Shown: positions 5,902-48,803, counted from the first letter of the stretch. The stretch is DNA of 64,000 bases from Alphaproteobacteria bacterium GM202ARS2 (GCA_014323835.1 JACONH010000012.1:95363-159362); one strand, 5' to 3'. Notes: generated by a model not told the origin, from the sequence alone. A program made the numbers and translations.

Positions 5902-6126
5902 GATAAGATTACGTGTATAAGACTACCACAGATGTGTCTTTTTTTGAAAGAGAGATAAGACACATATATACAGTGTTATAGTCTATCATACATCGTGGGG
6001 GTGGGGCGGGCGTGGGGTGTGGGTGTGACGGGGGTCGAACAGGGGTGCTTGCGGTTACACGTATATATAGTGCATATATATGTGGAGGGTTTGGTTTTTA
6101 TGTTTTGAATGATTTGAGGCGTATCG

Positions 6127-7434
6127 ATGATTCCGCGTTATAGTCGAGAGGCGATGGCAGCGCTCTGGTCGGACGACAAGAGGTTTTCTTTTTGGCTCGA
6201 GATTGAGCTGCTGGCATGTGAGGCTTGTGCGCATCACGGCTTGTTACCGCCTGAGGTGGCGCGTCGTATACGTAAGCGGGCGCGCTTTGACACAAAGCGG
6301 GTGCATGCTCTGGAAGCCGAAAGCAAGCACGATGTGTTGGCGTTTCTTGCTAGTGTTGGCGAGTCTTTGGGTGACGATTCGGCTTATTTGCATCGAGGCT
6401 TGACCTCCTCAGATGTCATCGATACCGCCTTCAGTCTGCAGTTGGTGGCGGCGGCGGATGTGTTGCTGGCTGGGCTGAAACGACTCTGTGATGGGCTGGA
6501 AAAACAGGCGTGGCGGTATAAAGACGTGCTGTGCATGGGACGCTCCCATGGTATGTGGGCAGAGCCAACCAGCTTCGGCTTGAAAATGGCGTATGCGTGG
6601 GCAGAATTCCAGCGTAACATCCAACGCTTGCAAACAGCACAAGAAGACGTGCGGGTGTGTGCCTTGTCAGGCCCTGTCGGGACGTATGCCCACCTTGCCC
6701 CTGAGATCGAAGCTTTTGTTGCGGAGCGTCTGAATCTACGTGTCGAGACGGTGTCCACACAGATTATCCCGCGGGATAGGCATGCGCTGTTTTTCTGTGT
6801 GTTGGGGGTTATTGCTGCGTCTGTTGACCGTCTGGCAACGGAGGTGCGTCACTTACAACGTAGCGAAGTTGCTGAAGCGGCTGAACCCTTCGCGCACGGG
6901 CAAAAAGGCTCCTCAGCCATGCCACACAAACGCAACCCGATTCTCAGCGAGAATGTCTCGGGGCTAGGACGGCTGGTGCGTTCCTATGTGCCAGCGGCTT
7001 TGGATAACGTGGTGCTGTGGCACGAGCGCGATATCAGTCACTCTTCTGTCGAGCGGGTGATTGCTCCTGATGCCACCATTGCCCTCGATTTTGCCGTGCA
7101 TCGACTGACGCACATTATAGAGGGCTTGGTGGTGGATGCCGACAAGATGGCACACCACATCGCGCAAAGCGGCGGGCTGTATGGCTCGTCTAAGGTGCTG
7201 GTTGCCCTGATGGAACAAGGTGTTGCCCGGGAACAAGCTTACAGCGCGGTGCAACAAGCAGCATTGAAATGCTATCAGGGCAAAACACCGTCTTTTATGC
7301 AGGGCTTGCAAGATGACTCTGTCGTCAATAAGGCACTGACTGCCGAGCAGCTGAAGGCTCTGCTTGAACCGCAAGATTACGTCAAGCACTTAGGGACAAT
7401 CTATCAGCGAGTCTTTAATAAAAAGATAGACTAA
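6127..7434 (+). CDS. purB: adenylosuccinate lyase
   Basis: 435 aa. N-terminal RYSREAMAALWSDDKRFSFWLEIELLACEA and the fumarate-lyase signature GSSAMPHKRNP. Confidence 0.9.
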   Translation: MIPRYSREAMAALWSDDKRFSFWLEIELLACEACAHHGLLPPEVARRIRKRARFDTKRVHALEAESKHDVLAFLASVGESLGDDSAYLHRGLTSSDVIDTAFSLQLVAAADVLLAGLKRLCDGLEKQAWRYKDVLCMGRSHGMWAEPTSFGLKMAYAWAEFQRNIQRLQTAQEDVRVCALSGPVGTYAHLAPEIEAFVAERLNLRVETVSTQIIPRDRHALFFCVLGVIAASVDRLATEVRHLQRSEVAEAAEPFAHGQKGSSAMPHKRNPILSENVSGLGRLVRSYVPAALDNVVLWHERDISHSSVERVIAPDATIALDFAVHRLTHIIEGLVVDADKMAHHIAQSGGLYGSSKVLVALMEQGVAREQAYSAVQQAALKCYQGKTPSFMQGLQDDSVVNKALTAEQLKALLEPQDYVKHLGTIYQRVFNKKID

Positions 7435-7533
7435 TGAATTGATAGTGAATAACACCTTTGTATACTCGTGTTTTTCTGTGGATAACTCTCTTTACTTTTG
7501 AGCGATGTCAGGCGATGATGTAACTTAAAGTTG

Positions 7534-7557
7534 CCATACTTAGAAGTATGGTTTTTT
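7534..7557 (+). terminator. putative rho-independent terminator (AT-rich hairpin + T6)
   Basis: CCATACT-TAGA-AGTATGG hairpin followed by TTTTTT, about 100 nt downstream of the purB stop. Confidence 0.3.
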
Positions 7558-7585
7558 ATCGTTGACACATAAGGAGGGTATAACG

Positions 7586-8752
7586 ATGAGACTTTTATTT
7601 TCTACAGTCGTGCTTTTTGGGTGCTTGGCTTTTGGTTTTGTGCCTGTGGTTTTGGCGGATGATGATGTTCAGCCGTCGCCGCCGTCTATTGGAGCGGATG
7701 TTCCTTTGACGTATTTTGGGCCTGCGCCGTCGGATGTTCAGCGTGAGTTGATAGGGCCTTATCAGTTATTGAAGTCGGGCCGTATTGATCATGAGCGTTC
7801 ATCGATTACGTTGCCGTTGTATCATGGTCGTATGCGTAATGGCGATGATGTTTGGTATATTGTTTTGGACACGACGGATTTTGGTAATGCGGAGGCTTTG
7901 GGGATTAACTATGCGCCGAAGTTATTTTATTCGAATGTTGATGGAGCGGTGCGCCGTGCTCGTTTGGGTAAGAACTTTGAGTTGGTTTTTGATTCGGGCG
8001 AGGTTGATTTTTCGCCCAAGCGGTCGGTTGTTGCGGGGGACAAGCCGAATTATTTTCCGCCCAAGAGTCACCAAGCGGGTTCCGTTGGCGATAGCGACTA
8101 CACCCCGCTGGTCGAGATTGTCAATGCGGGCGGTCATATTTACAATGCGCCGGTTTTGGCACAGGATGTATCGGCGGATGCGTTGAACAAGTTCTGTGAT
8201 GGTGGTGTTGATTATGATGTTGTCCATGACAAGGTGATGCGGATATGTCCTCGAGAGGCTGAGGTTGAGATATCGTTGACGGCGGGCTTTAGTTTTTCTC
8301 GGCCGGTTTTGTATATTTCCACGGAGGCGAACGATACGTTGGTTGCAGCGTTGGAGGGGGCTACGTATACGCCGGCGATGAAGAACATTGGCGTTGGTGG
8401 TGATGATAGTCTGTTTAGTCCTGTGGAGCGGATTTTTGTTTTTGTCAATGGGCCGTTGGGTCGGGGCAATCCGCAGCGTCAGGGTTTGAATAGTGCTTTG
8501 TCGGATGGGATGACTCCTTTGAATGTTTTGGGGGGTATTCCGACTGTAGCGACGGATTATAGCCCTTTGTGGGATTTGAATCCGGCGGTGTGGACGGACA
8601 AAGCCATTAAGCGTGGCTATCGCTCTCGTATGACGGAGGAGTTTGCCATTTTGGGTTTAGCGGAGAAAGGTTGGATTACGGGCTTGGGCGGTAAAGCCTT
8701 TGGCTCGTCGGGCTTCGTTGTCAATTGTCCGATTGTTTTCCGCTTCTTGTAA
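7586..8752 (+). CDS. secreted hypothetical protein
   Basis: Start set at ATG 7586 (MRLLFSTVVLFGCLAFGFVPVVLADDD..., a clear signal peptide), 8 nt after a strong SD AAGGAGGG. 388 aa with no recognisable catalytic motif. Confidence 0.6.
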   Translation: MRLLFSTVVLFGCLAFGFVPVVLADDDVQPSPPSIGADVPLTYFGPAPSDVQRELIGPYQLLKSGRIDHERSSITLPLYHGRMRNGDDVWYIVLDTTDFGNAEALGINYAPKLFYSNVDGAVRRARLGKNFELVFDSGEVDFSPKRSVVAGDKPNYFPPKSHQAGSVGDSDYTPLVEIVNAGGHIYNAPVLAQDVSADALNKFCDGGVDYDVVHDKVMRICPREAEVEISLTAGFSFSRPVLYISTEANDTLVAALEGATYTPAMKNIGVGGDDSLFSPVERIFVFVNGPLGRGNPQRQGLNSALSDGMTPLNVLGGIPTVATDYSPLWDLNPAVWTDKAIKRGYRSRMTEEFAILGLAEKGWITGLGGKAFGSSGFVVNCPIVFRFL

Positions 8753-8792
8753 GCAGTTGGGAGGGGTGTAGGGGCAGGTAAGGAGGGCTGGA

Positions 8793-8827
8793 GCGCGTCT
8801 GAGCTTGTCTCAGGCGCGTTCCTTTTT
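8793..8827 (+). terminator. rho-independent terminator
   Basis: GCGCGTCTGAG-CTTGT-CTCAGGCGCG hairpin (10 bp, one G.U) followed by TTCCTTTTT, 40 nt after the stop at 8752. Confidence 0.5.
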
Positions 8828-8881
8828 GCGGATGTGGTGACTTGATATTGTGGTGCTATTGTGGCTAGAGTGTGCTGGTGC

Positions 8882-8955
8882 GCGCCCGTAGCTCAATTGG
8901 ATAGAGCGTCTGACTACGGATCAGGAGGCTGGGAGTTCGAGTCTTCCCGGGCGCG
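8882..8955 (+). tRNA. tRNA-Arg (anticodon ACG)
   Basis: Hand-folded cloverleaf. Acceptor GCGCCCG/CGGGCGC, D-arm GCTC..GAGC, anticodon stem TCTGA/TCAGG with loop CTACGGA (ACG), T-arm GGGAG-TTCGAGT-CTTCC, discriminator G. No encoded CCA. Followed by a T-run. Confidence 0.85.
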
Positions 8956-8981
8956 CTTTTTTATTTTTTGCACGAGTCATG

Positions 8982-9010
8982 TTGACAAAATCGACTCGTT
9001 CTTTTATGCT
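8982..9010 (+). promoter_or_regulatory. sigma70-like promoter candidate for the giant gene (TTGACA - 17 bp - TATGCT)
   Basis: TTGACA at 8982..8987, a 17-bp spacer, TATGCT at 9005..9010. The RBS AAGGAG lies at 9036..9041, 9 nt before the GTG start at 9051. Confidence 0.35.
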
Positions 9011-9050
9011 TGGCTATCTGTTTTACTGTCACGTCAAAGGAGATTGACCG

Positions 9051-12000
9051 GTGCCGATACGTCTTGTTTTGCTTTTGAGTTTGTTTGTTTTGGGAGGGGT
9101 TTCATCATGTTCGTCGGGGGATTCGCCTTCCTCGAGTGCTTGGGTGCCGCCTCGTGTTGTTGTTGAGGGTCGGGCGGGGACTCGCCCTGACCCGGGCACG
9201 CGCCCGACTGACCCAGGTCCCACTGATCCAGGTCCCACTGACCCGGGTGTTGTGCCGCCGGGGGATCCGGATGGCACTGAGATACTGGTGTCCAATGATA
9301 GAGGGACGACTTTGCGTGGCACGCAGGATTTCCAGAGCGGTCAGCAATCGCCGGTGTTGATGGCGTTGCTCGAGGAAGTGGAGGAGGCTGATACTGAAGA
9401 GGAAGCCTCTATGAGCAGGCTCGAGAGTCTGTTTGGTTTTGGCAGTGGTGTGACCGAGCAACAGGAGCGCACTCGTTCCAGCTTTGAGTATGCCAATCAG
9501 CCGTCTTTCGACAAAGTCGGTGCGGGGTTTGCTTATTATGATCGGACGCGCACGCAGCCGTCCAGCGGTGGCTTGTCGGCTTTTCAGGACGATGGCGGGT
9601 TGTTGTATGACCGCACGGGTGCGGGGTCATCGATACGTTATTTGACCGACAGACGTTTTGGTAATTTTAATGGCACAACGGGACGTTTCACCGATACCAT
9701 CGGGTCACATCCCGAGTTGGCTTTGTCCGGTGGCGAGGCTCTGGTGCGGGCGTGGTCGGACGATATCACCAGTCGAGTGGCGGGTGCTTTGCTCTTTGAC
9801 CCCTATGTCAGACGCGAGGAACGCAAGCTACTGTATACGTATAACCGCTTAGGGACGTTACAGCACCACAGCAGTGCGGCGGTGCGGCAACCACGGGCTT
9901 TGGCTATTCCGTTTCTTAATCAAGGGGCGTCCACGACACCGCCGGCAGATATTGTAGCGGTTCTTTTCCATCCTGACCCTATCCCTACTCCTCCCCGTGT
10001 CAATGTTCACGGTGCTGACCCTAGCCCGTTAACTGTAGAGGACTCCCGTATCATTACGGCTTTCAATCGTGAAACCCTCAGCAGCATTTCTGCGGGTATC
10101 GATGACTCGGCTTATGTGGTGGCGCGTCGCTCGGTGTTGGCTCGGATAATCGATTCGGGCGTTCCGGGCTTCGATTTCTTGGTGGATGACAACGGCAACC
10201 CTGTTCTTGTGGATGAAAACGGCGATGTTGTGCCGACCGACAGTAGCGGCGACCCGCTGGATTCTAATATAGACATTAACACCCTTGATTTCGCCTACAC
10301 TGAGGACGTGGGGTATACCTATGGCGATGTTTTTGTTCAGACGGTGTTTGCCGCCTATGATCTTCCTTGGGGGGCTACCGCTGGTGACTTCCGTTCCGTT
10401 GGCGAGGAAGCCACGGCTGAGGATATTGGTCTGTTGGCGTTGATACGTGGTTTGGTCAATCCTGAGGATTCGATTAACTTGGCGGCGTTGCGGGTGTCGT
10501 CTCATGGTATTGCCCCGGGGGCGGAGTTGGGTGTGTTGACGACTCATGGTTTGCGGGAAGTGGGCGATTGTGTTTCGATCGCGCGTCCCACGAGTTCGGC
10601 TACCGCAGTGGGGACGTGTGACTCGACTGGTGGCAGTGATTATGGTGAAGTCAAAGCCGTGCGTGGCGGCGTTAATCTCTATGATGCGATTTTGCGAGCG
10701 GGCGCGCCTCGTGGTGTTGGGCGCGGCAACATTATTTTGTTCGATAATCGCTTGCAGGCATCGGGCTTGAGCATGGTTCTGGCAACGAGGGATATCACGC
10801 AGTTGCCCTTTGCCGACAACAACCTGTGGCACATTGAGAGTCAACGTGCGGGCGGTTTTTCTACCGATTTGGGTGATTATTACACACGGGTATCTGATGG
10901 CACGGTTGCGTTGCGTCCGACCCTTGCTGCTGACAATGGGGTGAAGGTCTACGAGCAAGACGGCTACAAGGCGAAGGGCACGGAGGTTACGACTTTTGAT
11001 GACACGACTCTCACGCCGCAGCAGATTGTCTTTGCGATTATTGATGGTCATTATGGTGCGAATACGATATTGCGTTCCCGTAATGATTTAGGCGCGGACG
11101 CTCAGCGGGCGTTGCGTCTGTTGTTGGGTATGCGTCATAGTTTGCAGCGGAATGATGACTCGGTGGTCGAGGATTATGATGCCTTGATTTTTGCCGCGCA
11201 GGAGCAAGGCGGTGATATTGGTTTGTTTGCGGGTCTGCCTCTTCAGGTTGATTTGCTGGTGGATGCTCGCCGTGCCGCGGCGGAGGCGGACTTTGCCCTT
11301 GCTTTGCGTGATGGTTTGAGCGAGCGCGATATTTTACAACGGGCATTTGCGGCAGGACACAGATATGACGCTGGTCGTCAGACTCTGCGGACTGAAATCA
11401 CCGTCGACAACGTCGATGGCGAGCCGATTGCTTTCCATAGACGTGTTTTCCATCGAGTGCCGCCGGCGTTGAATGACGATTTGAATAATTCGCAAGTGTC
11501 GCTTACGTCCTTTGAGTTTTTGGAAGGGAGCAATCAGCTACGTGTGGTTTTCAGCAATGGTAATTCGTATACCATTGAGCGCGGTTTGAATGAGCAAGGT
11601 GTTGCCAATGATTTCCCTGAGGGTCAGGGTCATTATTACTATGCGGCGGCTCGTGAGGTTCTGTTCAAGGTTGCAGGCGCGCGCACGTGGGTGTTTCATG
11701 CTGTCCCGCAGTGGCTTGTGGATGGTTTAGATTCGTCGGCTTCCTTTGAGTTTGTGGACAATCGTAACGAGGTGCGTGTGACTCTCAGTGATGGTCGTGT
11801 TCATGTGTTGGATGTGCCGACAGACCTTGAGACGCCGTTGCCGTATTATTTGGCGGTTGTTGCTGCCGAGAGTGGTGCTACGCCTTGTGGTGTTGTGGCA
11901 CAGGATTTCTGTTTGGCTGCTCCGGGGGCGTATACGTATCGCGATCCGGGTAGCGATGAAGCTTATGACGAAGATGATACGTTGGAGACAACGACCGCAA

Positions 12001-15000
12001 CTGCTCGAGCTGCCGCGTCGCTGGTTGCGGGTGGTTTTGCTCTGTTGCAAGAAGTCTTTGACGGGCAGTTGAATACTGCAGAGTTGGTTGCTCGTATCAA
12101 GCAGACGGCATCGCAGAACTTTGACTTGGATGGCGATGGTAATAATGACTATACCCAGATGGATGGCGGGGCTGAGCGGTATGGGCATGGTTTGCTCGAC
12201 TTGGAGTGTGCCACCAGAGCGAGTCTCGATAGATCCCGCTGTCGTCCAGCCACCACTGAAACCCGTGAATTCAGCCCGCAGGCGTGTTTGTTGCAGGGTA
12301 GAGGGGTGAATGTTGCGGGTGATGGCTGTGCGTCTGCATCGAGAAGTGCTTGTCGGGCGTTGGCGTTACAGGGCGCGGTGTTTGATAGCGCGAACAGCCG
12401 TTGCGTCAGCGAGACGGGATGTTTGGGCGTTCAGGGACGAGTCATCGACTTCGAAGTGGGCGAGTGTTTGACCGATGCGCGGGCGTGTCCTGCCGATAGA
12501 CCCAATGTTGCCGATGGACGTTGCTCGCAACGTATATCCGCAGAGATTTGTGCCAATTCGGGGCGTTTCTTGTTGGAGGAGTCGTCATCGGGGTCAGCTT
12601 TCCTCACTGAGGCTAATCGTGGCTTCCGCTGTGTCGATTCCTGTCCTGCTTTTCAGGGTGTGCGTGACGGCAATGTTTGCGTCGGCGATACGGCGCGGTG
12701 CGGTCCTGATGGTCGGGGGTCTCGAACTGTGCCTGGTGATGACCCTGGCGTTTCGCGTTGTGTCTCGTCTCTCGATGACTCTTTCACCGAGGATACGTGT
12801 TCGGCGGCGGGGCGGTTTGTTTCCTCTACGGGTGATGCTTGTGTAGCGCGCTGTGCTGCCGGTGAATTCGTTGGTGTTGCTATGGGCGGGACGTTGCCAG
12901 TGACGTGTATGTCCACGTGTCCGTCAAGGGGTGTTAGGGACTCGACCGATAATTGTATCTCGCGCTCGGCGTGTGTTGGCAGTGGTGTTGTCAGCTCGGA
13001 TAATCGTCAGTGTTTCACGGATGGCGATGATTGTCCCGCGGGCTATGGTGTTTATAAGAATCAATGCACCAGTCGGGTGATTAACGATGATAGCTGTTCG
13101 GAGGCGAGTCGTTTTGTTGGTGCAGACCGTCGGACGTGTGTTGCCAGTTGTGAGGGCGGGCAGTTTGTTGGGGCTGGCAGCTTAGGGGCGAATACGTGTT
13201 ATTCGGTTGATTTGTGTCAGGCGGCGGGTGGTGGTCGTGAAGCCATCAATTCGGGTGATTGTGTGACGGCAACGGCTTTGAGTTGTTACAATCTTGGTTC
13301 GGTTACGTACTTATATAACGGCATGCGTGGCGCGGAAGCTGCCTGTGTTGATACGTGTGCTAGCGGTGAAGTGCGGCAGATGTCAGGCTCGGCGAATCAG
13401 TGTTTGAGTCAGTTGGGTTGTCGGGAGTTGAGTTTGGTTGTGGGGCAGGGTGCCGAGCAAGATTTATGTGTTGCGGCGAGTGCTATAGGCTGTGCTCGAG
13501 ACGGAGGGCGAGGTTTTGAGAATGGTGCGTGCGTCGCGGCGTCAGCATCGACGTGTGATACGAAGGGTATTTCTTTTGTGGATGGTGAGTGTCGTTCTTG
13601 TTTGCGCTCGCAGGGTCTTGTGGGTAGCGAGTGTCGCAACATTGACACGTTACCAACAACGGCAGAGCAAATTACGGCGTGTGCGGCGTTGGATAGGTTG
13701 TATGACCCTGCCAGCACGGCGCGCTGTGTTGCGACAGCCTCGCAATGTAGCGATAACCGCGTGCAAGGTGTTTCGGGGTTGACGGTCAATGGTGTCGCGG
13801 CGGATACGCAGTGCGTTGCGGTGAGCGAATGTATCATGGGCGGTTTCGGGCTTGGCACCAACGTGTGTGCGCCAGCGGCGGCGGATACGTGTTACAGTGC
13901 CGATTCGGCTAGATATTTTTATGATGGCTCGAGCCGTTGTGTTACCGATTGTGGTGCGGGCAATGCTCGCCGCACGGTGGGGACGAGCAATGACTGCCCG
14001 TCAGAGATGATGTGTCGGGATACGTCATCGCGGGCGGTTAATAACGGAGTCTGTGTTGTTGCGGATAGCGATACCTGTCGAGCGGATGGCTCTCGGGTTT
14101 TCTCGACCAATAAATGTGTTGCCAATGCGCGGGCGTGTATCAATGAGACGGGCGACTTAGGCTATGATAGCACGACCAACAGCTGTGTTATGGCGACATC
14201 ACCGACAGAGTGTTTGGCTGCGGGCAATGCGTTCTTTGATGGCACCGATAGGTGTCTTGCCGAGTGTGCCGCGGGGCAGGGGTCTGATACCAATCGAGAG
14301 TGCATGGCGGTAACGGCGGCGAATGGTAATGTTGTTTGTGGCAATGCGTCGCGGCGTTTTGATGTTATGGCTGATGCCTGTAAGTCGAGCAACACGTGTG
14401 ACGTGGGCGAGTTCTTAGGGGATGCCAGTTTTGGGGCGAATAGTTGTTATACTGTGGAAGGGTGCGTCATGGCGAGCGGTGGTCGTAGTGTGTCAACCGG
14501 TGTCTGTGTGGGTGCGGCGGCGGATACGTGTCGTGCCGCGGGTGTGTCCACGTATTACTTTGATTCGGCGCGGGGCTGTGTGACGGCGTGTGACATGGGT
14601 GGCTTGACGGTCAGGCGTGCTTTGGGCTCGGGCAATAGATGTTTGACGCCAGCGGAGTGTCGTTCTCTGCCCCATACGGGCCCCGATAGGGGGGCGGTGC
14701 TTGCGGGTGATTGTGTTATTGCAACAGCGAATACGTGTGCCGGTGATGATAACGGCGGGCTTGGTTTTAGGAATGGCATTTGTATCGAAGCGAGTTCGAC
14801 GAGCTGTGATACGACTATGGGCATTCAGTTTTCGAATGGTCGGTGCATGGCTTGTAATGCGGGTCAGGGCTTTGTTTCGGGGTCGGGTTGCACGGATATT
14901 ACCACGTTGGGCACGGCGGCGGCACAAGTGGATGCCTGTGCGGCGGCGGCTCGTTTGTATGACCCTGCCAGCACGGTTACGTGCGTTGCGACAGCGAATG

Positions 15001-18000
15001 ATTGCACCCAGAACAGAATTCAGGGGCGTTCTGTTGTGATGGTGAATAACCGTCCTTCGAATAGCCAGTGCATTTCCATAGCCGAGTGTGGTGCGGGTAT
15101 GTCGGGTGTCGATACGGGGAGGAATAGATGTGTGGCGGGCACGGCAGTTACGTGTAAAGCGGTTACCAGTAGCACGCATTACTTCGATGGTGATGACGGG
15201 TGTGTTACGTCTTGTTCGGGTGTGGCAGATATGAGGACGGTGACTCGTGCGATAACGGGTGGCAACGAGTGTGTTACGGCAGATAATTGTCGTGGCATGG
15301 CACATACTGGCAGTGTCAGGGGTGCGGTGCAAAATAGCAATAATTGTGTTGTTGCGAATGGCAATAATTGTGCCTTCGATGACAGTCGTGCCTTTAACGG
15401 TGCGATGACGGGTTGTGTTGAGTCATGTATCGTTGATGATGGTGGGCGTGGTCGTTCTGCTTTGGGTCAATGTGAGGCTGCATCACCGGCTTCCTGTTAT
15501 AGAGATTTTCAATCATCCGCCGATGGCTTTTACGATGCCAATGCCAGTGGTGGGGCGCGTTGTATCGAGTTTCCCAATCAGTGTGCCAATGGTGCCTTCG
15601 GTAGTAGTCGTTCGCTTATGAATGAGTGTGTGGCGGATTGTCCGAGTAGCGGGCAGGGCGTGAATAGCAACAATATTTGTAGCGGTGTCGGTGGGCTCAA
15701 TGCTACCGAGCGGGTAACCAACTGTATACGTGCTGAGCGTATCGTGGAGGGCAACGCTTGCACCGAGACGTGTTCGAGTGGCACGCCCTATTATAATGGC
15801 ACCGATACGTGTGTGGACGCGGCGGGATGTGTTGCGATAAATCGGGGCGTTGCGACTAATGCGGCGAGTCGCTTTGGTCGCCAGATTGCCACAGCCGGTT
15901 CCTGTGCGACCGCCAGTGCCGCCAGTTGTCATACTGCGGGGTCTTCTACGTACTTCTTTAATTCGGGTGCACGTCGGTGCGTGTCGGATTGTGGCGCGGG
16001 CAATGCTCGCCGCACCGTTGGCACGAACAATACGTGCATTGCCGAGACCGCCTGTCGTAATGCCACCAATCGCGGTGCGGTTGTGGGTGGGATGTGTGTC
16101 GCGGCGAGTGCTGATACGTGTTTTGCCGATGGCGGAATGGGCTTTGGCAGTGGCCGTTGTGTGACGGCTTCCGCGACAACGTGCAATGAAGATTTGAACT
16201 ATGTGTTCGATGCGGACGATAGAGCGTGCGTGTTGGGCTCCTTTGTGGATGTTGCGTTGCCTGCCACCATAACGACTCGAGCGGATGCGTTGGCGTTGTT
16301 TACGGGCGACCCAGCTGAGGCAGCGGCGGCGGATGAGGTTAAGAACATCCGCACCGAGTATCAGGCACAGCCGTCTTTGGCTCAAGTGGGTGCCGCGCAG
16401 GCGTATGTCAGCCGAGTGCCGAACAGCGGGGCAACCATCAACAACCTGAGCCAGCTGACTATTGGCAAGGGAAGCCAAATCAGCGTGATTACCAATAGGC
16501 GTTTTGACCCGTCACACCCTGAGTTCTCGTCCGCAGTGACTGGCACGGATGCTGTCGACTACGAGACCCTGACGCGGTTTTACATAAGTGTTTCAGGCCG
16601 TTTACTTAATGACGATTTTAGTTCTGCGACGGCTGGTGCTCATGTATTTCTTAATCGCTATTTCAGTGGCGATAGCGGTGAGTCCCCTCGAACCGTTTTC
16701 TATACGAGCGGATATAGTCCGTTCGGAAATTTTGAAGCCTATTTCTCAGCAAGAATAGGGCAGATAACGAATATGAATTTCGATGCGATTTCTCGGACAG
16801 ATACAAGTTTTGATGGTACCACGAGCAATCCTGTTGGGGTGGGTTTGCTGGGGGTGTTTTCTCCGCTTCTTGGTGGTTCGGCTGTTGATGTAACACCGTC
16901 ATTCGATGGATTTGAGATTACTTATGATTCGAGTCAGAGGGTGATTATCGTTGATACTGCTTCCGACGATGACGAAAACTTCAACCACGTGGGGCGTATC
17001 TATGCGGAGGGCGAGGGCAATCTCGGCTCGTATCAAATTGTTGTGACCAGCGACACGGTGGTGCGTCAAGATAACAACACCTATGGCTCAGACGTGCCTG
17101 ATGAGGCGGACGCTGAGGAGATGGGCTTGTTGGTTTTGATTAACGGCATGTTGGATGGTGCAGGGGGTGCTACCAACACGCACGGCATTGCCCCGGGGGC
17201 GACTCTGAATGTGTTTACGTCACCGCGAGTAGGTGCCAACAGGCATAATTCTGTTGATTTGATTTATCGGGCGCGGGGCATCGATATTGCCCGTGATAGA
17301 GACAACAACGGCAATTTGATAGCCGACCCCGTCCGTAACATTGTGCTGATACAGAATACGCTTGCCCATAGTGAACGCAACAACGCTGTTACTGTTGCCA
17401 ATGTTAATGATGTGGTGGGTGCATCGGGTAGTAACATTGCTGATAGCTATAAGGAGATTTATGAAGCCTTGCAGTTGGGTGTCAAAGCACCGGTGCAGGG
17501 GTCTGTAACCGCTGACGAGAAACAACAAGACATTTACGTGTTTGCCGCGGCGGATAGTCGTAGCGCGCAAAATGGCGTAGGCTTGTTGGCTGCCTTGCCG
17601 GCATCGACGTCGGGAACATCGCTTATGCCCTATTCTGTTGCGGTGGTTGCCGCGGAAGATGCTGCCAGTGCTTTTTGTGGCGTGACCGCTAACGATTTCT
17701 GTTTGGCGGCACCGGGGGCGTATAAGTATCGTGATGATGGTGCGGATAACGCCTACGGCGGTAGCGATGACACCCTAGAGACCGCCAGTGCGACCTCCAA
17801 TGCGGCGGCGTCTTTGGTTGCGGGTGGCTTTGCTATCTTGGAAGAGCTGTTTGGCGACCAGCTGGGCAGTGACCAGTTGGTGGCTCGTATGCTGGCGACA
17901 GCATCGCAGTGCTTTAATATAAACGGCGGCGGTGCCGAGGCTTGGAACAGCGCGACTGGCAGATGTGAGAATGCTCGTAATGATTATGTTGGTGATAGAG

Positions 18001-21000
18001 GCACGCCGACGATGGACAACTTGAACCCGACTCGGTATGGGCATGGGCTTATGGACTTAGAGTGTGCCACTCGTGCCAGCTTAACGCAGGAGCGTTGCCG
18101 CACAGCATCAGACGCGCCGTCTGTGTGCTTGGCGAACGGTTTTGGGCATAATGGTTTTATTTGTGTGACCACAGGCATTACGACTGGCGATTGTGGTCGA
18201 GCAGGGGGCTTGCTGTCGGGCACTTCTTGTATTGCCGCGAGTGCCTGCACGGGTGGTATGGTGATTAACGTGGACAATGACGAGTGCGTTTCGTCATGTG
18301 AGACGACAGATGTTATTGGTGCTGGTGGTCGTTTTGCGACCAACAGGTGTTATACGGTGGATACGTGCATTATGGCGGGCGGGGGCTTGTCGGCTATGAG
18401 CAACGGCATGTGTGCCGCGGCGAATGCGCGGACGTGTCATAATGCTGGTGCGGATACGTATTTCTATGATGGCTCGAGCCGATGTGTTACGGATTGTGGC
18501 ATGAACAATGTGGGGCGGGTGAATGGCACGAGCAACTCGTGCATAACGCAGACTATGTGCCGTAGCAATAGTATCAGGGGTGCGGTTGTTGGTGGTGTGT
18601 GTGAGATGGCATCGGCGGACAATTGCTTTGCTGATGGTGGCTTGGGCTTTATGACCAATGAGTGTGTGACGGCATCTGAGGGGACGTGTAGTGAGGAAGC
18701 CAACTATGTCTACGATGGCTCGAGTGCTTGTGTGCCGGGTGCCAATATCAATGTTCGGGTATCGGGCATTGATACGCGGGTAAAGGCTTTGGCGTTGTTT
18801 ACGGGTGACAAGGCAGAGGCAACGGCGTCGGATGCGGTGAAGAACATCCGCACCGAGTATCAGGCACAGCCGTCTTTGGCTCATGTGCATGCCGCGCAAG
18901 CGTATGTCAGCCAAGTGGCAGAAACCGGTGAGACGGTGAGCAATCTGAGTCAGTTGGCTATTGGTAAGGATAGTTTGATTAACGTGATAACCAATCGGCG
19001 TTTTGACCCGACGCACCCTGAGTTCTCGTCCTCTGCCGACGGTGCCGAATACGAGACGTTGACTCGCTTTGAAATCGGCACGGATGATAACGAATTTACC
19101 AGCGATGCGAGGGATATCACTGAGGGAAGCAACAAGATTATCTCGGCAATTTTCAATCAAGATACGGGTGATAATCCGCGGGTTATTTCTTATGAGAACT
19201 GGTTCCAAGCGGGTCGCTCGTTCATATCGGTCAGAGTGCCGCAGATTGATGGTAGGAATTTCGATGAGATTTCTCGTAGTGGTGCGGGCTTTACATCGAC
19301 TGACACTAGCAATCAGGTTGGCTTGGACTTATTGGCGTTCTTCCAGACGATTCTCGGTGGGGACAGAGTTGGCTCTGTGACCTTTGACGGTGACGAAATT
19401 CTTTATAATAGTAACGAAGCCATAGACTTGGTATCGAATACCGACCATGGCACGGCGCGGCGGTTCAATCATATTGGGCGGGTGTATGCGCGCGGTAATG
19501 TTGGTTCGTATCGTGTTTTTGCCACAAGAGTCATCGATGGCGTGCGGCAGAATAATAACAACTATGCGAGCGGTATTCCCAATGAGGCGAATGCGGCTGA
19601 GATGGGCTTGTTAGTGTTGATTAACGGCTTGTTGGATGGTCAAGGGGGCGCGACAAACACGCATGGCATTGCACCGGGGGCGACGTTGAATGTCTTTGCG
19701 ACGCCGACTTTCAGTAGCGGTAATAATGTGGCTGATTGGACTCTGCGGGCCCGTGGCATCGATTTGGGACGTGATAGGGACGGTAGCGGCAATCTGATAG
19801 CGGATAAGACTCGTCATATTGTGTTGATTCAGAATGGCGTTGCCGATTCGGGCACGGGTAATGCGGTGAATCGCAATAGTGTTAATTCGGCAGGAAGAGG
19901 CAGTGGGGCTTATCGTGGTCTTTTGCCTAACTTGCAGTTGGGTGTCAAGGCGCCGGGCTCGGCAACCGCTGAGGAGCTCAGAGCACAAGATATTTATGTG
20001 TTTGCCGCGGCGGATAATCGTAATACGCACAAGGATGTGGGTATTCTTGCCGCGATGCCGTTGGCGACAGAGAATAGCATTAACATCAGTCCGTATTCGG
20101 TTGCGGTGGTGGCTGCTGAGAATGCGGCGAATGCTCATTGTGGTTCGGTGGCGCGTTCCTTCTGTCTGGCGGCACCGGGGTCGTATGCGTATCGCACGAA
20201 AACCGGCGGCTCGTATGGCGGTGGTGATGACACCATTGCGGTTGCCCGTGCGACCTCTAATGCTGCGGCGTCACTGGTTGCGGGTGGCTTTGCTATCCTC
20301 GAAGAGATATTTGGCGACCAGATGGGCAGTCATGATTTGGTGCAGCGGATGCGTTTGACCGCATCCACGTGCTTTAATGTGCAGGGTGCTGCGGGGGATC
20401 CGTGGAATAGTGATACGAACACCTGTGATAACAGCAAGAACGACTATGTTGGTGATTCGGCTAGTCAGCGTCTTGGCTCGGTGCCGGGGGAGAACCGCTT
20501 CGGGCATGGGCTTATGGACTTAGAATGTGCGACAAGAACGGCTCTTGAGCGTGATGGCTGTCGCATAGCGTCTACGGATACCGCGGCGGGTTGCTTGGCG
20601 AACAATCAAGGGTTCAACGGCGTGACTTGCACGGCGACCGGCATTACCGCCGCCGAATGTGTTGAAGCGGGCGGTATTAGGGAAGGCACCATGAATCGTT
20701 GTATTGCGCGCACGGCTTGCACCAGTCCAAGGTTGTTTAACCTTGACAACAATACGTGCGTTGATATGTGTGATCCTGGCGAGGGGCGGGCATCGGGTAG
20801 ACGCTGTGCCGCGGCGAGCGATGAAAACTGTAATAACTTGAGTGTTCGCTATGATGTTGGCAATGATACGTGTCGTGGCGACCAGAACTGTGGGAATAAT
20901 GAATTTCGTGGGGATAGTAACCTTGGGACGAACTCGTGTTATACGGTGGCTTCCTGTGGGAGCAATGGTGGCGGACGAGCCAACGCTGGCTCGGGTCTGT

Positions 21001-24000
21001 GTGTGCCAGCAACGGAAGCGACCTGCTACAATCTTGGTGCGACAACCCGTTACTTGCAGAATGGCGACTGCGTGACCAGTTGCACGGGTGGTGAATTGAC
21101 TCGTTCTATTGCGATGATGAATGTTTGTGTGTCTGATACGAACTGCCGTGGCTCTCGTCAGGGTGCGGTGTCTGGCACCACGTGCATTGCCCCCAGTGCG
21201 ATGGCGTGCAATGATGATGGCATGCGTGCCTTTAACAATGCGATGGATCGGTGTGTGGTTTCGTGCATTGCCAATGATAGCGGACGGGGTCGTGATTCCA
21301 GTCATAACTGTGTTGGGGCAACGGGTGCGTCTTGTCGTCTTGCTGGTGGCAATAGCAATACGATGGGTTTCTTTGATAACAGCGATAGTGCCAACCCCAC
21401 GTGTGTTGCCACTGCGGGCGATTGTAGCGGTAGTCAGTTTGGCGAGACGGATGGCAGTTCGAATACCTGTGTTACCAGCTGCACGAATCTGACGTATGGT
21501 GTCGATGATGATGAAATCTGTGTTATGCCCAGCAACCAAGATCAGTGTGGCAACGCCAATCGTTTCTTACAGGGCGGTATCTGTGTGGCTGCGTGTTCGG
21601 GGACGACCGACATTGTTGGCGGGGCATTGTCGGGCATGGATGCCACCTGTGTTGCTGTCACGGCGTGTATCGCTGGCAATTTGGGTGTTGAGAACGGCGA
21701 GTGTGCGACCGCGAATGCAGGGACGTGTCATGGTGCGGGCGAGAACACGTATTTCTATGATGGCTCGTCCATGTGTGTGTCCGATTGTGGCAACAACAAT
21801 GTTGGCTTGATTGATAGAACCGCTATGCAGAACACCTGTGTGACCGAGACGAATTGCCGCGACACACGTAATGATGCGATTATCGATGGTGTCTGTGTGG
21901 CGGCGAGTGCTCTGACGTGCTTCCAAGATGGCGGTAGGGGCTTTGATGGGACGAGCAGCTGTGTAGATGCGGCGGCGGATACGTGTCTCAGCACGAGTAA
22001 CCTGATGTTTATGAATGGTAGCTGTGTCTCGTCATGCACGGCGGGTCAAGGTTTCCGTGGTGGTAGCTGTGTGGCTTTGACGGGGTTGACGACAGGGCAA
22101 CAGATTGAAGCGTGTTCGAATATTGGGCGTTTGTATGACCCTGTGGATGGCACACCGACGTGTGTGGCGGCTGGCGCGAATTGCAGTGGTGACTTGGTGC
22201 AAGGACGCCGTGAGATTAACGTGAATGGTGTTGTCTCGAATACGCAGTGCATTACGGCAATGGCGTGTGGCGATGCTACGTATGGTGTTGCGAGTAAAGT
22301 GTGTGTCGATGCGGCGGCGGATACGTGTCGTGCTGCGGGTGATTCCACGTATTACTTTGATACGGATGGTGGCTGTGTGACCATGTGTTCTACGGACGAC
22401 CGTCTGTATACGTTGAATAGTGCGACGGCGGGTAACAGCTGTGCGACGGTGGCAGAGTGTCGTGCGGATACGGATACGGGCACTGCGTTGCGTGGGGCGT
22501 GCATGACAGCATCGGTAGAGAACTGCTTTATCGATGGGGGTAGAGGCTTTGATAGTGGTGAGTGTTTGACACCGACGCAGGCGAGTCATTGTGATTCGAA
22601 TGCCAACTTAGTGTGGAATAATGCTGACAACTGCGTCAGCATGGAGCGGGTTAATGTTGCCGTCAGTGGTATTACGTCTCGCCAGCTGGCAGAGGAGATG
22701 TTTACCGGCGATGTCGATGATACCTCAGCTGACATTGTTATCAGGAGCATCCGCCAAGAGTATCAAAATCAGCCGTCACTGGATATTGTGGGTGCCGCGC
22801 AAGCGTATGTTAGCAAAGTGGCAGAAAGCAACGCGGATATTATGAACCTCAGCGAGCTGTCTTTGGGTAAGGATAGTGAGATTAGCGTGATTACCAATGC
22901 TCGTTTTGATCCGAATCACCCTGAGTTTGCCTCTTCCCGTGGCTCGACCTTCGATACGTTGACGCGGGTGAGTGGATTTCGAACTAGTGTCGGTCTTCAG
23001 TTATCCAATATTGTCAATGAATTCTTTGGTGGCGATATGACGGCTACTGGCAGGCGGGCTACTGCTTATACGTTTAGTATAACTGGTCAACGATTTTACT
23101 TTACCCTACCGATAGGGGAAATCGACAGCATGCCTTTTGAAAATCTCGCACGAGATGACGTGACAGCTTCTGGGACGGCTAGAGCAAACCAGATACGTGA
23201 TATCTTGCGTCTGTTGACCGGGAATACAGAGGGCGAGTTTAGTGGTGACCTCAGTTTTAGCGATACGGGTTTCCCAACGGGGACGGCTAGTCGTTTTATT
23301 CAAATTTCTCGGATGGCAGCGGATGGGGTCAACCATGTCGGGCGTATTTATCAGAATAGTAACATTGGCTCGTATCAAATTGTTCTGGGCAGACAAAAAG
23401 TGCGTGAGGCAGACGATAAAGGCGAGTGCATCGGCAACAACAACTGTTATTCCTCATCCGGGGGTGTCCCGTCAGCGGCGAGCGATGCCCAGATGGGTGT
23501 GTTGGCTTTGATTAACGGCTTGTTGGATAGTCGCGGTGGGGCTGAAAACACGCATGGCATTGCTCCTGCGGCAACGTTGCATGTGTTCACCGCGCCTAAG
23601 GTGGGGGCGACAGGGCATAGCAGTGCTGATTTGATTTATCGCGCACGGAGCATCGACCCCGCCCGTGATTTAATGGATGGCACGAACACCATTATTGCCG
23701 ATGACGACCGCAACATTGTTCTTATCCAGAACACCATTGCGGTTACGGCTCGCACGGAAGCGGCGACTGTTGCCAATGTCGGTGATGTTGTTGGCTTGGC
23801 AGGAGCACCGACCACGTTGGATAATGACTACAAGGGGATTTATGATGCGTTGCTCGTGGGTGTTGATGCGGATTCGGCAACGCAGGATGCTTATGTCTTT
23901 GCGGCGGCGGATGGGGCTAGAAGCGATGTTGGTTTGTTGGCGGCGTTGCCGATAGCGACCAACTCGAAGCTGGCTGAGTATTCTATTATTGTGGTTGCGG

Positions 24001-26858: not shown

Positions 26859-26901
26859 GGATGGTGTCAACGACTACGGCACAGATGCCACCAAGCACGG
26901 A
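26804..26901 (+). repeat. perfect tandem duplication, 2 x 49 bp (TGGATGAGGATGGTGTCAACGACTACGGCACAGATGCCACCAAGCACGG)
   Basis: Read directly: 26804..26852 is identical to 26853..26901. 49 is not divisible by 3, so the second copy shifts the frame and provides the TGA stop of the upstream ORF. Confidence 0.95.
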
Positions 26902-28497
26902 CAAGGGCTGATGGACTTGGCGTGTGCCATACGCCCGACCCTCGCCACGGGCGACTTGGTGCGCACCGGTTGCACAGACCGTCATCCTCTCGTTTCCCAG
27001 AACGCGCCGCCCTCACAATCCTCAGGACAAAACGCCCCGCCCGCAGCCCAAGAGGAACAAGAACACAGCGAGGATGGGGAACGCACCGAAGCGACCCCCG
27101 CTGAGGTTAACACCGTGGACTACTGCGATATTGACGGCTTGCGGATTATCTTGTCGGGTGACTTGTGCTCAGATGATTACCTGACCCTCGTAGACAAAGA
27201 CGGCAACGTCAATGGCGCGCTGATTGGTAACTTGCGTTTTGGTATGGGCTTTGGCGACTCGTTGTTGCAGGGTATCGGTATCACCTTCTTCGATGCCTTC
27301 GATACCGCTTGGACGGTGGACAATCCCTATAACCCGTATGCGCATCTGTTGAACTTTGGCAATATTGTCATCGCCCCCGCCGAATCCCGCTTCGATGTTG
27401 AAGATAGGTTCTATGCTATGCGTTATGGCACGCGTCCGGGCACGCGCAAAACATGGAACAGCGATACGGCTCGTATCACTTTCGACTTTGCTACGCAAGG
27501 CATGGCGACCAAGCCTTATGCGGTCACCCGTGGGCAAATCCGCAACACCATTACGCACGACAACATTGGGGCTGACCCCTATGCCGATGTCCGCTTTATG
27601 CTCTCTGCTGAGGATTCGTTGGGTGTTGGGCTTGGACGCCTGAAAGTCATGACGTATTCGGGCATGGCGATGGGCTATGCGTTGGGCTTGCATGCACAGG
27701 GCGATGCCATGATGCCGAGTTACTTGCTGACGAATCGTGACTCGTTCCATGCCCCGTATCTGTCTCTGGCGAGCAGTGGCTTAGGTGGCGGTATGACCTA
27801 TCGCTTCCGTGATGGCGGGCATATTGGTTTTGTGATGGGCGAAGGCACGAGCTTAAACGCTGATGGCACACTGCCGTATCAGCAACAGACGTCTCGTCCG
27901 CGGGCTTTCGCGGGTATGATGGAATATGCCCCGCACCGTAACTTGATGTTCCATGCGGGTGCGTTGCAAGAACAGAGCACGCTGTTGGCATCGCAAGGCT
28001 CAGGCTTGTTTGATATTCAGGGTGGCACAACCACCTTCGTTGGCGTGCAAGCCAAACAGCCGTTGACTGATAACTGGCAGGCGTTGGTCAGTGGCTATGG
28101 CGGACGCACGCAGCTTGCGGGGTCGGGCGGTATTGTGTCGGGCTTGGATGTGATGACGTCTTCGTTTGATGTGGGCTTGCTTGGCTCGCATGTCTTGGAG
28201 AAAGGCGACCATCTGTTGTTCCGTGCGGGACAACCGATGAAGGTCGAGTCGGGCTCGCTGGACTTGTCTTATGTGTCGTTCCGCCGTCAGGATAGGTCGG
28301 CAGTCAGTCATACGCAGAGCTTCGATGTTGCCCCGTCCATGCGGTCGGTGGAGTTCGGGGTGGGCTATGGTATGCCCATTGGCTTGAATGGCAGACAAGG
28401 CCACATGCGTTTTGCTATAGACTACGTGCTGAATCCGGGACACCGACGGGTGCGTGATGAGGTCTTTGGCATCATGTCATTCCGCCGCGAATTTTAG
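26853..28497 (+). pseudogene. out-of-frame 3' continuation of the giant gene (linker + autotransporter-like beta-domain), separated from 9051..26858 by the 49-bp duplication frameshift
   Basis: A different frame from copy 2 onward reads DEDGVNDYGTDATKHGQGLMDLACAIRP...FRREF*, colinear with the C-terminus of the downstream paralog (...NQHGQGLMDLECAVRP...FRREF). The C-terminal aromatic residue and alternating beta-strand pattern suggest an outer-membrane beta-barrel. The ATG at 26764 in the ORF track is not a real start. Confidence 0.65.
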
Positions 28498-38657: not shown

Positions 38658-39404
38658 GTGAAGGCTCAAGATTATGCCAGAGAAGGAGAAAATATAGCCG
38701 AAGGTATAAGCTCAATCATCGATTCAAACTTTAAGGATCAGGAGTGGAACAAGACGTTCGCTCGTGTCCTACAGGCACAACTCAAGCAAGCACGCAAAAT
38801 AGGCGGAGAATTACGACTCCGCCTATACGGCTCGAACGAAAAAGAAAATAAAGAAGCACAATACGATATACAAAGTATGGCAAACCAGCTCATCCCTGCG
38901 GATTGGGTCAATAAAAGTAACGAGTGTGGAACGATACACACTCGTAGAATCAGGGGCAGACAATGGCACAGATTCATTAGACAAAACAGCACAATCAAAG
39001 TAGATGACTTGCAAAATCCTATCAACGTAACAGCTGGGGACTCGTTGATTTTTACCGCAGAAAATGAAATTTACGATACCATGCACGAATTCGTTCACAG
39101 ACTACAAAACGTCTTCCCTGACATTCAAGAGATGTTTCAAAGTATCCACGACCAGCGAACTGCTCACGAAGACATAGATTATCTTTATCACGACGGGCAT
39201 GAAGTTGGCAAAAAGGACGATTACATTAACGCATATTTTGGCAGAGTCTATCCACATGGGGGCGCGCTCGAACTTTGGCCTATGTGTTGCCAATCAATCA
39301 TGGGGCATTTATTAGATGACTTGTATTGCCAACGCTTTTTCCTTGAAAAAGACCCCGAATTAGCTTACATAACCATAGGCGTTCTTTTTTGTTTCGAAGG
39401 GTAA
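38658..39404 (+). CDS. hypothetical protein with an HExxH motif (possible zinc-dependent hydrolase)
   Basis: 248-aa ORF starting at GTG 4 nt after the giant-gene stop, in an AT-rich patch. It contains MHEFVHRLQ (HExxH) and several Cys/His downstream. No family could be assigned by eye. Confidence 0.45.
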   Translation: MKAQDYAREGENIAEGISSIIDSNFKDQEWNKTFARVLQAQLKQARKIGGELRLRLYGSNEKENKEAQYDIQSMANQLIPADWVNKSNECGTIHTRRIRGRQWHRFIRQNSTIKVDDLQNPINVTAGDSLIFTAENEIYDTMHEFVHRLQNVFPDIQEMFQSIHDQRTAHEDIDYLYHDGHEVGKKDDYINAYFGRVYPHGGALELWPMCCQSIMGHLLDDLYCQRFFLEKDPELAYITIGVLFCFEG

Positions 39405-48602: not shown

Positions 48603-48803
48603 ATGGGACTGCGCTGGAGTGACACCTACGATATTGCTATCGAACTGGAAGAACGCTATCCCAACGAGGATAACGTCAATCTGCGTTTTACGGACTTGCA
48701 CAAGTGGGTCACGAGCCTGCCCGACTTCGAAGACGACCCGCAAGGGTCTAATGAATCTATCCTCGAAGCCATACAGATGGCTTGGATCGAAGAAAGAGAA
48801 TGA
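48603..48803 (+). CDS. iscX: Fe-S assembly protein IscX
   Basis: MGLRWSDTYDIAIELEERYPNEDNVNLRFTDLHKWVTSLPDFEDDPQGSNESILEAIQMAWIEE is colinear with E. coli IscX (MGLKWTDSREIGEAL...). The in-frame ATG at 48594 would overlap fdx. Confidence 0.7.
   Translation: MGLRWSDTYDIAIELEERYPNEDNVNLRFTDLHKWVTSLPDFEDDPQGSNESILEAIQMAWIEERE

Follow-up and report, generated by a model that had tools for sequence, protein, structure and literature searches.

Cysteine-rich tracts in giant putative surface proteins of a sponge symbiont: candidate rods of single-disulfide β-hairpins

The window analysed here is a 64,000-nucleotide (nt) stretch of DNA from Alphaproteobacteria bacterium GM202ARS2 (GCA_014323835.1 JACONH010000012.1:95363-159362), and it holds two giant genes, gene 1 and gene 2, whose proteins are built of subtilase-like modules separated by cysteine (Cys)-rich tracts. 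On balance, we lean towards the reading that these tracts are arrays of β-hairpins, each closed by a single disulfide, which would form stiff rods spacing the subtilase-like modules of symbiont surface proteins. The two-Cys, 22-amino-acid (aa) repeat of which the tracts consist was previously undescribed and is represented in neither Pfam nor NCBIfam. What is new is the sequence family, its confinement to a sponge-symbiont lineage, the length of the arrays and their autotransporter-like setting; the structural principle is already known from animal receptors.

A preliminary description of the sequence had pointed to a long array of six-Cys repeats at 12240-16260, corresponding to protein residues from about 1060 to 2400. 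This stretch sits within a plus-strand open reading frame (ORF) of 17.8 kb (9051-26858, 5,935 aa), in which a map of Cys per 50 residues revealed four Cys-rich tracts, with three more in gene 2. The array was found where it had been placed, with 120 Cys in the 1,341 residues from Cys1053 to Cys2393 (8.9%), in a tract rich in Ala, Gly, Ser, Cys, Val and Thr and with scarcely any Lys, His or Trp. Shorter arrays had been reported after every later module and again in gene 2 at about 29900 to 31100; all of these were recovered, together with two further tracts in gene 2:

12207-16229, plus strand: Cys-rich tract 1 of gene 1, the flagged array (aa 1053-2393, 1,341 aa, 120 Cys, 60 two-Cys units)
18063-18731, plus strand: Cys-rich tract 2 of gene 1 (aa 3005-3227, 22 Cys; includes a copy of the core described below, 18411-18746)
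20526-22634, plus strand: Cys-rich tract 3 of gene 1 (aa 3826-4528, 66 Cys)
24324-25070, plus strand: Cys-rich tract 4 of gene 1 (aa 5092-5340, 24 Cys)
29895-31055, plus strand: Cys-rich tract 1 of gene 2 (aa 463-849, 36 Cys; one core copy, 30090-30446)
32925-33263, plus strand: Cys-rich tract 2 of gene 2 (aa 1473-1585, 10 Cys)
34908-35339, plus strand: Cys-rich tract 3 of gene 2 (aa 2134-2277, 14 Cys)

Along tract 1, long Cys-to-Cys distances (11-27) alternated with short ones (mostly 3-9). When the gaps were numbered from the first Cys, 60 of the 60 odd-numbered ones were at least 10, whereas 88% of the even-numbered ones were below 10, an alternation that is not due to chance (P = 1.8e-26, gap permutation). 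Over the seven tracts of both genes, 146 two-Cys units were counted with a period of 22.0 ± 3.4 aa, each consisting of a long C-x10-26-C loop (mean length 15.7 aa, range 12-28 aa, both Cys counted) and a linker of 2-15 aa. The elementary unit is thus not the tandem six-Cys repeat of about 50 aa that had been proposed, and the Cys spacing, thought to be invariant, turned out to be constrained instead. The consensus of the unit was weak: the closing Cys was followed by Val or Ile in 64% of units and preceded, two residues earlier, by Gly or Asn in 47%, and Gly was found four residues past the opening Cys in 32%. The tracts vary in length from 5 to 60 units and the modules that flank them are alike in size, a pattern that spacers would be expected to show. 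Two biases are common to all the Cys tracts: linkers have a strong preference for an odd number of residues (3, 5 or 7 in 92/139, against 21 with 4, 6 or 8), and Lys (0.4%) and His (0.3%) are scarce and Trp absent, with Arg at 7.2%.

The six-Cys block originally noticed is real but had been mis-parsed. In the flagged region, the pattern C-x7-C-x13-20-C-x3-C-x12-20-C-x5-C was found at five places (aa 1404, 1606, 1819, 2027 and 2285), with four more further on, and it forms the N-terminal half of a core of about 112 aa with 10-11 invariant Cys, which is never repeated in tandem. There are nine copies of this core in gene 1, starting at aa 1404, 1606, 1819, 2027, 2285, 3121, 3984, 4218 and 4418, and one in gene 2, at aa 528; they are 25-45% identical in amino acids, are spaced 200-260 aa apart in the flagged tract and lie within a super-repeat of approximately 210-260 aa. 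Both units quoted in the preliminary description were found verbatim, each opening a core, and the sequence blocks that it had named as recurrent do recur, although sparsely (ADTC five times, YFYDG three times, CVTDCG and RRTVG twice each). At the DNA level the core copies are 61-84% identical; therefore, the repeats are old and not assembly artefacts, and a collapse of repeats during assembly was ruled out on the same grounds. The cores of tracts 1 and 3, with the E values of the local hidden Markov model (HMM) domains for the former, and the super-repeat chosen for modelling are as follows:

13260-13610, plus strand: core block at aa 1404 (domain E 1.3e-33)
13866-14201, plus strand: core block at aa 1606 (domain E 3.1e-40), opening with the second quoted unit
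14505-14861, plus strand: core block at aa 1819 (domain E 2.3e-36), opening with the first quoted unit
14505-15128, plus strand: modelled super-repeat, of which the core block at aa 1819 is the N-terminal part
15129-15488, plus strand: core block at aa 2027 (domain E 6.5e-30)
15903-16244, plus strand: core block at aa 2285 (domain E 9.4e-41), the last one ahead of module 2
21000-21326, 21702-22040 and 22302-22649, plus strand: core copies within tract 3 of gene 1

The arrangement of the Cys points to how they may be paired. Their number was even in seven of seven tracts (120, 22, 66, 24, 36, 10 and 14), and all seven tracts open and close with a long loop. Sequential pairing over the long loops would consequently leave no free Cys, whereas pairing over the short linkers would leave two free Cys per tract. 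Counts of 10, 14 and 22 also exclude pure four- or six-Cys modules, and six-Cys domains of the EGF, TNFR and laminin types were rejected on their wrong Cys parity (the 10-, 14- and 22-Cys tracts are not multiples of six), on a period of two Cys per 22 aa where such domains have six or eight per ~40-50 aa, and on the absence of matches to the Pfam models for EGF-like, laminin-EGF and TNFR. In comparisons with orthologues from independent metagenome assemblies, 36 of 36 Cys were kept between tract 1 of gene 2 and P0010, and 47 of 48 between gene 1 and P0003, in both cases with only 42-43% identity at the other aligned positions. Parity, tract ends and conservation of the Cys all fit one disulfide per β-hairpin, as we infer from the protein sequences. 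Furin-like domains have single 1-2 loops, 1-3, 2-4 modules or both, and parity and tract ends agree with sequential pairing of the 1-2 type.

A model of the super-repeat at aa 1819-2026 was obtained with AlphaFold2 from an alignment of nine internal copies, with a mean predicted local distance difference test score (pLDDT) of 78.3. When its secondary structure was mapped on the Cys, a β-hairpin was predicted for every long loop from the first to the sixth, the closing Cys lying on its second strand; where the linker had 5 or 7 residues, the opening Cys fell in a short helical turn. Foldseek comparison of this model with the PDB gave weak matches (E 0.14-2.4), none of them individually significant, and the 50 matches listed were, with the exception of two uromodulin chains, furin-like or growth-factor-receptor domains, that is, the Cys-rich region of IGF1R or the insulin receptor, HER2/HER3 or R-spondin Fu1-Fu2; EGFR was also among the receptors that the model matched. 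At the level of structural class, these matches are consistent with the proposal that the tracts resemble disulfide-rich stalks of eukaryotic extracellular proteins, a reasonable reading for which the structural support is weak but consistent.

In domain II of EGFR, the long loops are closed by disulfides and C-x3-C segments (e.g. ...GSCVRACG...) are the linkers, and its later modules are single disulfide-closed hairpin loops joined through such C-x3-C linkers, the same arrangement as that proposed for the symbiont tracts. More generally, the furin-like/growth-factor-receptor domains (EGFR II and IV, the Cys-rich region of the insulin and IGF-1 receptors, R-spondin Fu1-Fu2; PF00757) are rods of disulfide-closed β-hairpins with modules of about 15-25 aa and short linkers such as C-V-x-x-C-G/P, all of them features that the tracts would share. 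In contrast, there is no detectable sequence relationship between them, the tracts would be made of nothing but single-disulfide units, as many as 60 in succession, whereas the receptor domains have some 7-8 mixed modules, and the protein that carries the tracts is bacterial and putatively anchored to the outer membrane. Another possible likeness is to the variant-specific surface proteins (VSP) of Giardia and the surface antigens of ciliates, in which long extracellular arrays of short Cys-rich repeats coat the cell; however, no match to Pfam VSP or related models was found, CxxC is absent from the tracts, and spacing and organism differ.

In the arrangement that we favour, each module of about 22 aa would be a β-hairpin stapled by one disulfide; its opening Cys would lie within a short turn or helix and its closing Cys on strand 2, as in the module known from furin-like repeats as the 'β-finger' or single-disulfide type. 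Stacked one after another, such modules would yield stiff, protease-resistant rods of variable length, which could hold apart and present the globular subtilase-like modules of two, and probably three, giant surface proteins. The rise per unit in the Cys-rich rods of receptors is estimated at about 1 nm, and at that rise the 60-unit tract would measure tens of nanometres.

It is extremely improbable that the Cys are instead metal-binding or redox thiols, in the manner of metallothioneins or Fe-S proteins. A Cys content of 8.9% and a very weak Fer4_3 match (E = 7) could be read in that sense, but the latter is at noise level, and metal binding by the tract Cys was rejected in view of the export signals of the proteins, the even Cys counts with ordered tract ends, the near absence of His (0.3%) and the lack of CxxC clusters, to which the model adds a predicted β-hairpin ladder.

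Sequence searches did not connect the tracts with any of the families that had been suggested for them (EGF, furin-like, TNFR and GCC2_GCC3). In Pfam, no match was found to the Cys tracts at E <= 0.1 with the whole proteins, and none that was relevant at E <= 10 with four fragments; Furin-like, GF_recep_IV and related models gave no significant match to the tracts, and GCC2_GCC3 gave none. The NCBIfam search, which covered TIGR02232, a myxobacterial Cys-rich repeat model that we take to be part of that library, gave no match at E <= 1, and the core profile had no match at E <= 10 among all PDB sequences. A tblastn search of plasmids gave no match either, and among 596 pattern matches obtained when the GTDB species genomes were scanned with the module alignment there was no relative.

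By contrast with these negative results, an exhaustive HMMER search of 1.84 billion cluster representatives with the core profile retrieved 19 proteins at E <= 1e-3. These included the gene 1 protein, a partial paralogue of 5,362 aa encoded in the same metagenome-assembled genome (MAG) as gene 1 (P0002), two proteins of the sister MAG GM7ARS4 (P0008 and P0015) and unnamed metagenome proteins from ENA. All matches with a named source came from Candidatus Methylospongiales (order GM7ARS4), and the remainder from unclassified metagenome contigs. Far from being common in characterised adhesins under a known name, the repeat family is thus unnamed and extremely rare.

Two proteins of the family, P0006 and P0008, carry regular tandem arrays of a 66-aa, six-Cys (three-unit) repeat, which matched core positions 40-109 with E values from 1.7e-19 to 4.9e-14 and is a true relative. 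They share with the window proteins the alternation of long and short Cys gaps and the lipobox, and P0008 consists of Cys-rich repeats followed by the C-terminal domain that is also found in genes 1 and 2. Unlike the window proteins, in which cores of 112 aa and super-repeats of about 210 aa lie between the modules, both have a regular 66-aa tandem without subtilase-like modules. A weaker member of the family, P0013, combines 24-aa units of the two-Cys type with ankyrin repeats. In P0006 (ENA ERZ25068803 ctg9419l, 6001-10171), a putative lipoprotein of 925 aa, an overlapping ORF of 469 aa comes next, which is probably the matching C-terminal β-domain, so that a split like the one described below for gene 1 may recur in another assembly.

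The source organism, GM202ARS2, is a MAG of 1.83 Mb and 53.3% G+C content (GC) from the sponge Lamellodysidea herbacea, assigned to Candidatus Methylospongiales. It is reported to be methylotrophic, to carry a type III secretion system and to live possibly as a parasite or pathogen (PMC7313196). The order, GTDB o__GM7ARS4, is also present in the sponge Halisarca caerulea (PMC12391866). The giant genes are not mentioned in the published GM202ARS2 genome paper, and nothing relevant was found in the literature on furin-like or Cys-rich repeats in sponge symbionts.

With such a lifestyle, the repeats could be thought of as a host-facing, eukaryote-like mimic of furin-like or EGF-type modules, possibly derived from the host, that binds sponge receptors or matrix. 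We regard this as unlikely. The predicted fold resembles only Cys-rich domains of animal receptors, the organism, a sponge symbiont that may be pathogenic, has a type III secretion system, and P0013 joins the two-Cys unit to ankyrin repeats; however, the tracts resemble no Pfam or PDB family in sequence, they diverge fast outside the Cys, and the few matches among 1.84 billion proteins belong to this bacterial lineage where a source is named. Moreover, the GC across the giant genes is uniform (0.52-0.57, against 53.3% in the genome), which gives no sign of recent transfer; recent horizontal transfer was ruled out by this uniform base composition.

The tracts and modules are arranged in the two proteins, which contain 257 and 80 Cys in total, as follows:

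9051-26858, plus strand: gene 1 as deposited (5,935 aa, exact match to MBC6444927.1, GDA50_05755)
9051-9110, plus strand: predicted lipoprotein signal peptide of gene 1, VPIRLVLLLSLFVLGGVSS/C, with Cys20 (read from the translation)
9348-12206, plus strand: module 1 of gene 1, long, insert-bearing and subtilase-like (alignment A3; Pfam Peptidase_S8 E 0.021, below the cut-off)
16236-18080, plus strand: module 2 of gene 1, subtilase-like, with Ser at the catalytic-Ser position (A3 and 4kg7 alignment)
18744-20540, plus strand: module 3 of gene 1, subtilase-like, with Ser at the catalytic-Ser position
22647-24338, plus strand: module 4 of gene 1, subtilase-like, with Ala at the catalytic-Ser position
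25083-26855, plus strand: module 5 of gene 1, subtilase-like, with Ala at the catalytic-Ser position, curtailed by the duplication-induced stop
26803-26900, plus strand: perfect 49-nt tandem duplication (copies 26803-26851 and 26852-26900)
26901-28497, plus strand: C-terminal domain of gene 1, GDA50_05760 (P0032), a linker followed by a β-rich, barrel-like domain of about 300 aa that ends in ...SFRREF
28509-38654, plus strand: gene 2 (3,381 aa), with lipobox ...LLVGA/C at Cys44
37221-38651, plus strand: C-terminal domain of gene 2, which shares 85% identity with its gene 1 counterpart; some 14 long β-strands are predicted in its last ~300 aa

As deposited, gene 1 ends at a TGA that results from the frame shift caused by the 49-nt duplication. 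When one copy of the 49 nt was removed, gene 1 became fused in frame with GDA50_05760 into a single ORF of 6,465 aa, whose product runs from a putative lipobox through five subtilase-like modules and the Cys-rich tracts to a β-barrel-like domain at its C-terminus, and the junction is crossed in one ORF by three homologues from independent assemblies (P0025, P0028 and P0029). GDA50_05755 and GDA50_05760, both deposited as hypothetical proteins, are almost certainly one gene of 6,465 aa, and the duplication is either an assembly artefact or a real frameshift or on-off switch. Gene 2 is built likewise, from three each of subtilase-like modules and Cys-rich tracts and a β-rich domain at the C-terminus.

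A frameshifting duplication in a genome assembled from reads of 100-150 nt might also suggest that the array has been misassembled or is a relic without function, with gene 1 as a pseudogene or a short-read repeat chimera, but this is very unlikely. The 17.8-kb ORF has no other stop, its Cys are conserved with respect to independent assemblies of the same architecture, whose contig names suggest long reads (a point taken from the names only), and the repeat copies differ too much in their DNA for an assembler to collapse them.

The N-termini of the gene 1 and gene 2 proteins read as lipoboxes (LGGVSS/C and LLVGA/C) followed by Pro/Thr/Asp-rich linkers, and are predicted from their sequences to be lipoprotein signals; a lipobox-like N-terminus is common to homologues such as P0002 (FVAS/C), P0009 and P0006. 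The anchoring as lipoproteins that had been put forward is supported in this respect, but the lipid would not be the sole anchor, as there is a C-terminal β-rich domain too. At position +2 from the lipobox Cys, gene 2 (28509-28650) and P0011 have Asp (ACDSG), whereas gene 1 has Ser; in Escherichia coli, Asp at this position is a signal for retention in the inner membrane. Gene 2 has, after its lipobox region and ahead of its first Cys tract (aa ~210-450, 29140-29860), three tandem, Cys-free repeats of about 85 aa with an α/β appearance and the signature ...TVAVGIEPxDTxAERxAKxxAAIxAER...INVIEVFYDD..., which was also detected in P0011 and gave no Pfam match.

Eight paralogous modules of about 560-620 aa lie between the Cys tracts (alignment A3), the first of each gene with large inserts. 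Their best similarities were to Pfam Peptidase_S8 (14.6 bits against a cut-off of 21.8, E 0.021, in the C-terminal half only), to the NCBIfam mycosin model TIGR03921 (25.3 bits against a cut-off of 278.75, E 7.5e-6) and to PDB 4kg7 (E 0.0098 over the C-terminal half). No score reached the Pfam or NCBIfam cut-off for membership of Peptidase S8, and the relationship to subtilases appears only distant. In the column of the nucleophile, according to the 4kg7 alignment, Ser was present in two of eight modules (modules 2 and 3 of gene 1) and Ala or Gly in the other six, no HGTH motif was seen by eye in A3, and the regions of the Asp and His gave no alignment to an S8 structure; the canonical Asp-His-Ser triad does not appear to be maintained, and most of the modules are probably not canonical proteases. 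Two other residues are invariant in the modules, the His of 'THGIAPGA' and the Asp of 'QDxYVFAAxD' (e.g. 17799-17861 and seven paralogous copies), and the modules may be pseudo-proteases or enzymes with a non-canonical site.

The C-terminal domains, of about 480 aa, are 85% identical between genes 1 and 2 and 38% identical in P0008, and end in ...SFRREF; no match to Pfam (Autotransporter included), NCBIfam or PDB sequences was found for them. Their AlphaFold model showed approximately 14 long β-strands in the last 300 aa, against 12 in the β-domain of type Va autotransporters, and nearly all of the top 50 Foldseek matches listed (best E 4e-3) were outer-membrane β-barrels, among them the β-domain of BrkA, matches which count at class level only given the low confidence of the model (pLDDT 44). 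The domain may therefore be of the outer-membrane β-barrel type, which would give the proteins an autotransporter-like layout.

From a lipobox at the start and a β-barrel-like domain at the end, export by Sec and an autotransporter-like display are proposed. Oxidation would take place in the periplasm or outside the cell, and the proteins would be displayed with a lipidated N-terminus and an outer-membrane anchor. The order of parts that would result, lipobox, subtilisin-family passenger and C-terminal β-domain, is that of the lipoprotein subtilase autotransporters NalP/AspA of Neisseria and SphB1 of Bordetella. Genes 1 and 2 differ from these in that their C-terminal domain has no Pfam Autotransporter match, their subtilase signal is weak, the nucleophile Ser is present in two of eight modules, and the modules are multiplied five and three times. 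Their passengers are extremely Cys-rich, unlike those of autotransporters, which are mostly low in cysteine; in the few autotransporters that carry a single cysteine pair, the commonest spacing is 11 residues, and pairs with short spacing are tolerated (PMC9769942). With 257 and 80 Cys, the proteins depart from the low Cys content of type Va passengers. It is possible, if doubtful, that a type-V-like route exports passengers of 3,000-6,000 aa with about 150 disulfides, on a furin-repeat rod that arose independently in bacteria or is a very ancient relative; such export is conceivable because each disulfide would be local and sequential (loops <= 27 residues), and local disulfides of this kind might, speculatively, let the chain pass through a narrow secretion pore.

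Several points weigh against the arrangement of disulfide-closed rods on an exported surface protein. No sequence family in Pfam, NCBIfam or the PDB sequences backs the furin-like assignment. What the data show directly is the anatomy of the repeats, the parity and conservation of their Cys, how rare the family is, the organism of origin and the order of the domains, whereas the pairing of the Cys, the shape of the rods, their role as spacers, the route of secretion and the oxidation and surface exposure of the proteins are inferred. The MAG was assembled from Illumina short reads of 100-150 nt and gene 1 is interrupted as deposited. The β-barrel model, with about 14 strands, has a pLDDT of 44 and its sequence finds no Pfam or PDB match. 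Finally, a large disulfide-bonded loop made before translocation blocks passage through the outer membrane (PMC9769942), and approximately 290 Cys in two such proteins are unprecedented for the autotransporter route.

Gene 1, gene 2 and P0002 together occupy about 45 kb, some 2.5% of the 1.83-Mb genome. An investment of this size, the fast divergence of the non-Cys positions and the variable length of the tracts could fit a protective, S-layer-like coat or a variable decoy or antigenic-variation surface against phagocytosis or phage, all the more if the 49-nt duplication that cuts off the C-terminal anchor of gene 1 reflects phase variation. Nevertheless, this alternative is improbable: the DNA repeats are old (61-84% identity), unlike the near-identical cassettes of recombinational systems, the duplication could be a short-read assembly artefact, and the conserved modules between the tracts argue for functional cargo. 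Whatever their role, proteins to which such a share of a reduced genome is devoted are probably central to life inside the sponge.

If rods of single-disulfide β-hairpins are indeed exported in this way, the accepted rule that autotransporter passengers are nearly Cys-free would be extended, and the rod would be a stalk tens of nanometres long at the interface between animal and microbe. A bacterial rod with the architecture of the Cys-rich domains of animal growth-factor receptors would be a clear example of convergence, or of deep homology, in how extracellular proteins are designed. Should the C-terminal domain be a secretion barrel, the proteins would also probe how far disulfides are tolerated during translocation across the outer membrane, a question relevant to surface-display engineering.

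The genes that flank the giant genes are housekeeping ones (ETF, purB, cysteine desulfurase-like aminotransferases, an Hsp70, polA, hisD and citrate synthase). Immediately after gene 2 there is an ORF of 248 aa (38658-39404) in a stretch of lower GC (0.495), with no match in Pfam or NCBIfam. Further downstream, an ORF for an AAA_21/AAA_15 ATPase, AbiEii- or OLD-like (48782-49837), lies in the 48-50 kb interval, which has the lowest GC of the window (0.459, against about 0.55), and may have been acquired as a small defence or mobile element.

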